A stretch of DNA of 64,000 nucleotides from Escherichia coli. Lineage in GTDB: Bacteria; Pseudomonadota; Gammaproteobacteria; Enterobacterales; Enterobacteriaceae. Location: NCBI RefSeq assembly GCF_030013205.1, contig NZ_CP122648.1; one strand, written 5' to 3'. This document shows positions 2,597 to 6,668 of this stretch, piece by piece. The position numbers and the translations under genes are program-made. The notes beneath the pieces were generated by a model. That model searched no databases, had not been told where the DNA came from, and saw only the letters and a program-made list of their open reading frames with translations. Every line of letters begins with the position of its first letter. The stretch's first letter is position 1.

Positions 2597-2896
2597 AAAA
2601 ATTCCTTAATACTGATAACTTGGCGCACTATACACACGTTCCTGAAGAAAGCTATAGTTTTTTGATGGGGTTGAAGATGGCTGGATGTCTAAAATAAACA
2701 TTGCTTCATATGTTCAACTATGCGTTAATGATTGCGTCGGTTTGAAGAACAGACGATATACGAAGTAGTTTACTAAAGCAGTTCTCATTTCAGGTGTTAT
2801 TCACTTATTCCTTCTTTGAGTCTCTCCAATTAAGTACGAAGTCGTTTCTGTTATGCAAACCATTTATGCCGAAAGGCTCAAGTTAAGGAATGTAGA

Positions 2897-3112
2897 ATGT
2901 CAAATAAAATGACTGGTTTAGTAAAATGGTTTAACGCTGATAAAGGTTTCGGCTTTATTTCTCCTGTTGATGGTAGTAAAGATGTGTTTGTGCATTTTTC
3001 TGCGATTCAGAATGATAATTATCGAACCTTATTTGAAGGTCAAAAGGTTACCTTCTCTATAGAGAGTGGTGCTAAAGGTCCTGCAGCAGCAAATGTCATC
3101 ATTACTGATTAA
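2897..3112 (+). CDS. cspB: Cold-shock protein CspB
   Basis: 71 aa [24 protein letters not shown]... with RNP1-like motif (KGFGFI); long upstream leader typical of cold-shock genes. Confidence 0.9.
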
Positions 3113-3393
3113 AATTCATCGCTCGTCTGTATACGATAACGAAGAAGGCTGATGCCTGAGTAGAGATACGGACAGAGTAGTGAATATTGGATCTCTTTAA
3201 TAAAAAGTAAGGAGGTCCAATACATGAAACAATGGCTAGCATATTTGGCAAAATCTTAATCAGGAAAAGTATGCTAACCATTGTGGTGAAGTGCAGGTTT
3301 GCTGAATGAATAGTTTTACAGCAGAAGCTAACTGCTGGCATGGCAAAACAAAGTGCGTAAGTGGATGACTCCCACAAAAAGCACCACAATCTC

Positions 3394-3475: not shown

Positions 3476-3646
3476 TCAGGCTACAGCTTTAAGATTTGTC
3501 TGGAATACTTTGTTGCAATGAGGGCAGATCAAAAGGGCACCTTTTTGTACTCTTGAAAAACTGTGTTCTGACTCTTGGGTGCAGTTTGGGCAGGAACATT
3601 TAACGAGATAATTACGGCGTGATTTTGAGTTTTTACGTTCTGACAT
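3476..3646 (-). CDS. ynfU: Small zinc-ribbon protein (CxCPxC ... CPxC), YnfU-like
   Basis: ORF 3476..3697; internal ATG at 3644-3646 with an AGGAAAAG Shine-Dalgarno-like sequence gives 56 aa MSERKNSKSRRNYLVKCSCPNCTQ...CPHCNKVF. The gene name is from memory and uncertain. Confidence 0.45.
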   Translation of the reverse strand: MSERKNSKSRRNYLVKCSCPNCTQESEHSFSRVQKGALLICPHCNKVFQTNLKAVA

Positions 3647-5421: not shown

Positions 5422-5782
5422 GGTAATATTAAATCGGAACATTTACATCGCGGAATGTAAAATTTAAATAAAAAGGACTCTTCCATGAGCCAAAATTCCT
5501 GAAATCTTAAGGGTAAGATAAAAGGTCTTAATCAGAATGACACGTTTTATTAATAAATAAAGCTATTCTTTCATTGCTGTGTTTTTCTTTACAAAAGTAA
5601 TCCTTGCTATGGGTGGTTAATCATGCGTTAATGGTGTTCTGGTTTGTTACAAATTTATCTGAAGCAGTCATTGTTATAATTTTATTATTTGTACCTCTTG
5701 AGATTTCCTTGTTGGTTTTTCTCTCTGATATTTTTTTCGGACCATTCTGCCCAAGGGCTAATTTCTTCAAAAGGTAATAATT

Positions 5783-5995
5783 ATGTCTAACAAAATGACT
5801 GGTTTAGTGAAATGGTTTAACCCTGAAAAAGGTTTTGGTTTCATCACGCCGAAAGATGGCAGCAAAGATGTGTTTGTCCATTTCTCAGCAATTCAGAGCA
5901 ACGATTTCAAAACATTAACTGAGAATCAGGAAGTTGAATTTGGTATTGAGAACGGACCTAAAGGTCCTGCCGCTGTTCATGTAGTGGCGCTTTGA
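5783..5995 (+). CDS. cspI: Cold-shock protein CspI
   Basis: 70 aa [26 protein letters not shown]..., a paralogue of cspB. Confidence 0.9.
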
Positions 5996-6194
5996 GGTAG
6001 ACAATATTACAAACCATATTCACTTTAGATGCCCGTGTTGTCATGGTTCCCAGTATAGAACATCATCTTTTGATGTTTCTGACATGAATCCTTTCGGGGC
6101 AAAATGTATCTTTTGTAAATCAATGATGATTACATTTGATAATATTTCACAATACTTAAATGCCAGCCGTCTGTCGTTGGATTTGAAAAAGTGA
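5985..6194 (+). other. Zinc-ribbon-like open frame (CPCC...CIFC) with no in-frame ATG/GTG/TTG upstream of the first Cys pair; possible pseudogene or unconventional start
   Basis: Frame is open from 5985 to the TGA at 6192-6194; encodes ...RCPCCHGSQYRTSSFDVSDMNPFGAKCIFCKSMMITF...; resembles the zinc-ribbon ORF at 3476..3646; followed by a hairpin plus T-run at about 6199-6226. Confidence 0.3.
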
Positions 6195-6341
6195 AAATGA
6201 AGGCTCCTTCGGGAGCTTTTTTGCTTGGTGTCTATTCGATGGATACTCACATACTACGGTAACATCATGAAAAAAATCATAGTTTTTTTTAACTCTGAAC
6301 CAGCAGTGGTAGTGCCAGCGATGACTGGAGTTAACACCATC

Positions 6342-6497
6342 ATGCGTGAATATCCAAATGGCGAAAAAACACACCTTACTGTAATGGCCGCAGGGTTTCC
6401 ATCTCTGACCGGAGATCATAAAGTCATTTATGTAGCCGCGGATCGACATGTTACTTCAGAAGAAATTCTGGAAGCAGCAATAAGGCTCTTGAGTTGA
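6342..6497 (+). CDS. ynfN: Small prophage protein (51 aa), YnfN-like
   Basis: ORF track 6225..6497; internal ATG at 6342 gives 51 aa MREYPNGEKTHLTVMAAGFPSLTGDH.... The start choice and the name are uncertain. Confidence 0.4.
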   Translation: MREYPNGEKTHLTVMAAGFPSLTGDHKVIYVAADRHVTSEEILEAAIRLLS

Positions 6498-6668
6498 TTT
6501 GATGCTATTGCATTGATAATTCAGGAAAATTCTCTTTGTCTGTTTGTGTAAAATTTAGACTATCGTATGTTGATTATTGCGATGTTTCATCTTATCTTTT
6601 ACACGTTTGCACCATATAATCGACTTACTGTGTAACTGGAAAGTCATAACAGACTAAAAGAGGAAATG

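Follow-up and report, generated by a model that had tools for sequence, protein, structure and literature searches.

The frame behind cspI in a Qin-type lambdoid prophage as the ATT-started gene ynfQ, and the covariation of its start codon with csp context

Rare near-cognate AUU start codons are found in Escherichia coli in infC and pcnB, where they stand behind a normal Shine-Dalgarno sequence and give low, regulatable initiation; in infC, the AUU serves the autoregulation of IF3. Two further cases lie behind cold-shock genes. The small proteins YmcF and YnfQ were reportedly discovered by comparative proteomics by D'Lima et al. in 2017, who are said to have mapped their ATT starts. YmcF (b4723), which the core genome of E. 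coli encodes behind cspG, is a true paralogue of YnfQ, with about 65% identity and membership in the same Pfam family, PF23641.

The 2017 paper by D'Lima et al. is the reference given in PMC10191623 for bacterial AUU starts. The gene ynfQ has been listed as "Qin prophage, cold shock induced" (PMC11228462) and is co-regulated with cspI (PMC11228462; PMC11728337). The name requires some care: the "ynfQ" of VanOrsdel et al. 2018 is a different ORF of 37 aa, located at 1632890–1633003 between ydfJ and ydfK (PMC6001520, Table 1), and it collides with the current ynfQ, b4724, which codes for 62 aa and adjoins cspI (RefSeq NC_000913.3). The gene, its ATT start and its cold-shock regulation are thus already present in RefSeq and the literature and are not new. 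The sole new element of the present analysis, and a modest one, is the covariation between the start codon and the neighbouring csp gene.

The frame behind cspI and its identity

The window, i.e. the whole stretch of 64,000 nucleotides that was analysed, contains sequence of a Qin-type lambdoid prophage of E. coli, and ynfQ lies in its lysis-distal "moron" region. On the plus strand, an open frame runs from its first codon at 5985, directly 3' of an in-frame TAG (5982–5984), to a TGA at 6192–6194, and its translation of 69 residues includes ...ITNHIHFRCPCCHGSQYRTSSFDVSDMNPFGAKCIFCKSMMITFDN... An earlier note on this DNA had described such a frame, with two cysteine pairs about 20 residues apart and no ATG, GTG or TTG ahead of the first of them, and the window sequence and its translation bear this out: the pairs, CPxC and CxxC, are C9/C12 (at 6030 and 6039) and C34/C37 (at 6105 and 6114) in YnfQ numbering, spaced by 22 residues, and none of the three codons occurs in frame from 5985 to the first cysteine. 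The note had also taken the ATG at 6084 for the only one in frame; it is the first but not the sole one, an ATG ATG pair following at 6123–6128.

We consider it very probable that this frame represents ynfQ, which follows cspI as the second cistron on a cold-induced transcript of the Qin-type lambdoid prophage, and that its start is the ATT at 6006. The ynfQ CDS of 62 aa (6006–6194, plus strand) has the start ATT 6006–6008 and the stop TGA 6192–6194 and is annotated in RefSeq as b4724 and YP_009518790.1 in K-12 and as WP_071524604.1 in strain ETEC1748. Its product matches Pfam PF23641 (YmcF-like) over positions 1–62 of 62 with 111.8 bits (cutoff 27; E 1.7e-32), and the frame occupies the annotated place of ynfQ in Qin, between cspI and ynfR/ynfN. 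The DNA of the region 5700–6600 is 100% identical to ETEC1748 and 99.7% identical to K-12 MG1655. The Qin gene of K-12 (b4724) codes for the identical 62-aa protein with the same ATT start, the same terminator and the same 10-nt distance from cspI, while the loci differ only in synonymous or flanking nucleotides, so that they represent the same gene. Seven open codons upstream of the start (5985–6005, plus strand; WRFEVDN) lie outside the annotated protein and hold the 3' end of cspI, the cspI stop and the Shine-Dalgarno sequence.

Homologues were assembled as two sets, 80 IMG/VR prophage loci and 80 species-representative genome loci, the latter out of 191 genome matches. For 91 distinct homologous sequences, pN/pS over codons 2–46 is 0.14 in the ynfQ frame, whereas the two remaining frames reach 1.7 and 2.1, and most of the variation in the ynfQ frame is found at third codon positions. 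Judged by this sequence comparison, ynfQ is a real conserved coding gene under strong purifying selection. Standard ORF finders miss it because its start is an ATT; here it was flagged from the sequence alone. Cultured lambdoid phages (OV696610, Tritos; NC_049950, 2H10; LR597641, mEp460_ev081; PV340562; PV340573) have the lysis cassette, cspI, ynfQ, ynfN and gnsB arranged in the same module. Here the case carries a lesson for annotation: in 6 of 9 matching phage records the ynfQ homologue is unannotated, and a PHROGs search with YnfQ gave neither a match nor a PHROG family; both the missing phage annotation and the missing family are probably due to the ATT start.

Transcript and translation start

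The upstream cistron is cspI (5783–5995, plus strand; 70 aa), which is present in the ORF listing and in RefSeq. A cspA-type cold-shock mRNA, consisting of the 5' UTR thermoregulator and the cspI CDS, was recognised at 5638–6022 (plus strand) by Rfam RF01766, a model that spans the whole cspA-type mRNA; the match covers model positions 1–428 of 428 with 114.2 bits (gathering score 78) and extends past the cspI stop into the first ynfQ codons. The cold-shock induction of ynfQ reported in the literature is consistent with this thermoregulator upstream. A second match of the same type, with 158.8 bits, is found at 2736–3128 (plus strand) and spans the cspB mRNA. Behind cspB, in contrast to cspI and cspG, there is no ymcF-like cistron.

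At the other end, where the earlier note had seen a terminator-like hairpin at about 6199–6226, an intrinsic-terminator-like hairpin with a UUCG tetraloop (GGCUCC-UUCG-GGAGCU), followed by U6, is located at 6200–6222 (plus strand; dG -14.9 kcal/mol, z -3.0), and an equivalent hairpin lies behind ymcF (dG -12.0, z -2.7). Given the cspA-type leader match and the hairpin with U6 after the ynfQ stop, a bicistronic cspI-ynfQ mRNA of about 585 nt would be the simplest picture. A scan for an internal ynfQ promoter returned fewer sites than expected by chance, and folding around the start revealed no special structure of the RNA to account for the unusual initiation.

The annotated small protein ynfR (6197–6262, plus strand; 21 aa; RefSeq) begins 2 nt past the ynfQ stop, and its CDS overlaps the terminator, containing both the hairpin and the U-run. 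As ynfR has been reported to be cold-induced as an SPA fusion (PMC6001520), this overlap points either to read-through or to translation of the terminated 3' end. For ynfN, the window has an ORF of 76 aa (6268–6497, plus strand), as in the ETEC1748 annotation, which matches PHROG 3425 over its full length; the K-12 annotation gives only 51 aa, and PHROG 4911 represents that shorter form.

Among the alternatives to a purely coding role, the one that survives best, although we consider it unlikely, is that the region functions also, or mainly, as RNA, in the form of a 3'-UTR-derived sRNA processed from the cspI transcript. The strong terminator that ends the region would suit such an RNA, as would the match of the 3' end of a Salmonella ymcF homologue, together with its terminator, to the Rfam family STnc220 with 102 bits. 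However, the codon-position pattern described above reflects constraint at the protein level, sRNA families had no match in the window at E<=0.1, and the folding of the sequence around the start (5960–6040; z -0.26) is not better than that of shuffles. Moreover, an RNA role would supplement the coding role and not replace it.

The STnc220 match itself (RF02077; gathering score 60) is located at 1347–1426 of a locus from Salmonella enterica subsp. diarizonae (L093), and a weaker one was found at 1347–1420 of a Citrobacter sedlakii locus (L085). As the family matches the 3' end of the ymcF homologue and its terminator, the annotated STnc220 "sRNA" may correspond to the terminal portion of the csp-ymcF mRNA or to a fragment that stems from the 3' end of this transcript.

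The proposed start is supported by its immediate surroundings. A Shine-Dalgarno sequence, GAGGT (5994–5998, plus strand), overlaps the cspI stop TGA (5993–5995) and ends at a normal Shine-Dalgarno spacing, the distance from GAGG(T) to the ATT being 7–8 nt; TAAGG or TGAGG is kept at this position in all csp-adjacent loci. With a gap of 10 nt and a GAGG placed over the upstream TGA, the ynfQ start has the layout of a coupled cistron, and a gap of 9–10 nt is kept in 118 loci. At these 118 loci, the codon aligned with 6006 is ATT in 114 cases and ATC in the other 4, and never ATG. The comparison with other prophage loci that the earlier note had proposed, in search of an intact start codon, thus yielded a conserved ATT or ATC, and in 87 ATT/ATC loci, those of the window and K-12 included, the interval from the last in-frame stop to this codon is free of canonical starts. 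In Kosakonia, the stop of csp lies in the same frame as the homologue, and GGA TTT AGA/ACC is all that separates it from the ATT. Conservation of the ATT or ATC extends over the csp-adjacent loci of many genera and to cultured phages.

On its upstream side, the ynfQ frame of the window is shut by an in-frame ATG followed by TAG (5979–5984, plus strand), as seen from the sequence and from locus comparison. Some E. coli prophage copies have TTG in place of this TAG, and there gene callers lengthen the ORF to about 71 aa. This raises the question whether the true start could be a canonical ATG or TTG located 8–9 codons upstream in the 3' end of cspI, so that the window and K-12 would carry a TAG-truncated allele of a form of about 71 aa. 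The frame is indeed open up to such an ATG or TTG in 13 viral loci and in 23 loci of the species-level set, and database entries of 70–71 aa exist. We nevertheless regard this as very improbable: in 87 loci, among them the window, K-12, most E. coli prophage copies and all Kosakonia, a stop intervenes between that ATG and the ATT; the ATG arises incidentally from the conserved Asn/His-Val codons at the C-terminus of Csp and has no Shine-Dalgarno sequence before it; and the Pfam model starts at the residue encoded by the ATT.

The earlier note had left a choice between a decayed paralogue and unconventional translation. Decay would imply an untranslated pseudogene that has lost its start codon, derived from a YnfU-like gene or from an ATG-started ancestor, and would account for the absence of a canonical start from the open frame and for the ATG with which the homologues from Enterobacter, Klebsiella and Leclercia begin. 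We find this scarcely credible, as purifying selection (pN/pS 0.14) is confined to the ynfQ frame, the ATT or ATC is conserved throughout the csp-adjacent loci, the Shine-Dalgarno sequence is correctly spaced, RefSeq annotates ynfQ as functional, and homology to YnfU, which descent from a YnfU-like gene would entail, is absent. The first option is therefore wrong and the second right, the frame being the annotated, ATT-started ynfQ. Finally, that translation is limited to a 36-aa ORF from the internal ATG at 6084, which is the sole entry of the ORF listing in this frame, can be dismissed with near certainty because the segment upstream of this ATG is just as constrained (pN/pS 0.15 for codons 2–26, 0.10 for codons 5–26), a start there would remove the invariant first cysteine knuckle, and no Shine-Dalgarno sequence precedes it.

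Start codon and csp context

A relation between start codon and context became apparent when both were tabulated for the 80 species-representative loci. Where an intact csp ends 9–10 nt upstream, the start is ATT or ATC in 35 loci and ATG in none, whereas loci that lack an intact adjacent csp have ATG in 37 cases and ATT or ATC in 8, these 8 including one that is cut off by a contig end (L141) and one (L126) with a csp stop 10 nt upstream that falls below the coverage filter. The association is strong by Fisher's test (p 3.5e-15, a value not corrected for phylogeny), and about 7 changes of start class were counted on an NJ gene tree, which is noisy. Pseudescherichia, Atlantibacter subterranea and one C. 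freundii locus depart from the pattern in having an ATT but no csp.

Among the lineages with ATG, Enterobacter, Leclercia, Lelliottia and Silvania possess an AGGAG of their own and have no match to csp or to the cspA leader. Klebsiella and Raoultella still show a recognisable remnant of the 3' end of csp. In C. sedlakii, which is nested among ATT-bearing Citrobacter, a 19-nt deletion has brought a degenerate csp and the ymcF homologue into one ORF, and the ATT has changed to ATG. The resulting csp-ymcF-homologue fusion ORF in strain NBRC 105722 (L085, 997–1389) codes for 130 aa, and the RNA-binding motifs of the fused csp are mutated (KWFN to KEFN and VHFSAI to VPSSAI).

That ATT or ATC goes along with an intact csp, and mostly ATG with its absence, suggests translational coupling. 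We tentatively put forward, as a possibility, that the weak ATT/ATC start has been kept by selection as a component of a coupling device, in which YnfQ would come chiefly from ribosomes leaving the Csp cistron, and in a low ratio to Csp, and that loss or degradation of csp has repeatedly been followed by a switch to ATG with a strong Shine-Dalgarno sequence of its own. In such a device, ribosomes, most likely those that terminate on cspI, whose stop lies 10 nt upstream, would initiate at the weak ATT, and the output of YnfQ would track the translation of cspI at a much lower level. If this is true, the ymcF/ynfQ family represents a natural example of a start codon whose identity co-evolves with its operon context. 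In any case, the pattern of ATT when coupled to csp and ATG when standing alone provides a testable idea as to why a weak start persists.

The YnfQ protein and its relation to known systems

In the alignments, YnfQ shows the conserved core [KR]CPxC[HQ]GSQYR...NPxGAxCIFCK with its four cysteines. The first predicted metal knuckle, C9-P-C11-C12 (6030–6041, plus strand), has C9 and C12 as likely ligands, and three homologues have H, R or Y in place of C11; the second, C34-I-F-C37 (6105–6116, plus strand), occurs in all of the 91 distinct homologues. C9 and C12 are invariant as well, although both positions belonged to the search pattern. As C9, C12, C34 and C37 are invariant and C11 is replaceable, the predicted site consists of CPxC and CxxC. 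H13 is also invariant or nearly so, and H6 nearly invariant. An AlphaFold2 model based on 74 sequences (mean pLDDT 74.8; 85–91 for residues 11–40) places the knuckles on two short strands and has a helix at 44–58. YnfQ is thus predicted, from this model, to be a small Cys4 (C9, C12, C34, C37) metal-binding ribbon with a C-terminal helix. It was modelled as a rubredoxin-like miniprotein in a 2026 review (PMC13348028).

The YmcF-like family is narrow. A profile search of 1.84 billion representatives returned 43 proteins, which are stand-alone and of about 50–95 aa, or shorter fragments, save three long multi-stretch matches; two of these (P0195 and P0200) proved on reading to be spurious repeats. 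Members with a named source are nearly all from Enterobacteriaceae, with Dickeya as an outlier.

Other searches with YnfQ gave no assignment: PADLOC returned no match, all hits of a PDB sequence search were below threshold (a UvrA Zn module, E 0.035, and Rieske box II, E 0.1-0.9), and the only NCBIfam match, to the ECs_2282 CxxC family, was below the cutoff (17.8 bits vs 37). Residues 9–17 (CPCCHGSQY; 6030–6056) look like box II of the cytochrome b6f Rieske protein, CPCHGSQY, with one extra cysteine. A Rieske [2Fe-2S] identity was rejected, as the CxH of box I is missing, the second motif is CxxC, and the resemblance to box II is non-significant at the E values given. With low confidence, we suppose that the most likely role of YnfQ is that of a metal-stabilised binding module which acts beside the Csp RNA chaperones in cold acclimation and may bind RNA, the ribosome or a partner protein.

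Within the same prophage, YnfU is the protein to which the earlier note had compared the frame. The gene ynfU (b4776; 3476–3646, minus strand; RefSeq; Pfam PF23499, NCBIfam NF038384) codes for a validated zinc-knuckle small protein (bioRxiv 10.1101/511675). Both are small Qin-prophage proteins, predicted to be Zn-ribbon-like, in which about 20 residues separate two CxxC knuckles, but YnfU starts at a canonical ATG, its N-terminal tail is basic, and its fold neighbours are LysW-type ribbons, as opposed to TFIIE-alpha for YnfQ. Furthermore, ynfU is convergent to cspB at a distance of 364 nt and is neither co-transcribed with it nor part of a csp operon. The alignment of the two ORFs for which the note had called does not sustain a kinship: BLASTP produced no alignment at E<=100, hhalign gave a probability of 4.3%, and YnfQ has no match to PF23499 or NF038384. 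What the two share is the generic CxxC...CxxC (Cys4) motif alone, in separate Pfam and NCBIfam families.

The relation to YmcF is of a different kind, since the core CPCCHGSQYR...GAKCIFCK is common to both proteins. Like ynfQ, ymcF has an ATT start 10 nt past the csp stop, a Shine-Dalgarno sequence (TAAGG) overlapping that stop, and a GC hairpin with a U-run behind it. The gene order is parallel as well, csp being followed by ymcF or ynfQ and, further on, by gnsA in the ymcF locus and gnsB in the ynfQ locus. The two differ in that ymcF is chromosomal and not prophage-borne, that it has two consecutive ATT codons, and that the C-terminal 15–20 residues of the proteins diverge.

With infC and pcnB, ynfQ shares the near-cognate AUU start behind a normal Shine-Dalgarno sequence. 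We know of no autoregulatory loop of the IF3 type for ynfQ. It is set apart from both genes by a Shine-Dalgarno sequence that overlaps the stop codon of a very highly expressed upstream cistron, a difference that points to coupling or reinitiation.
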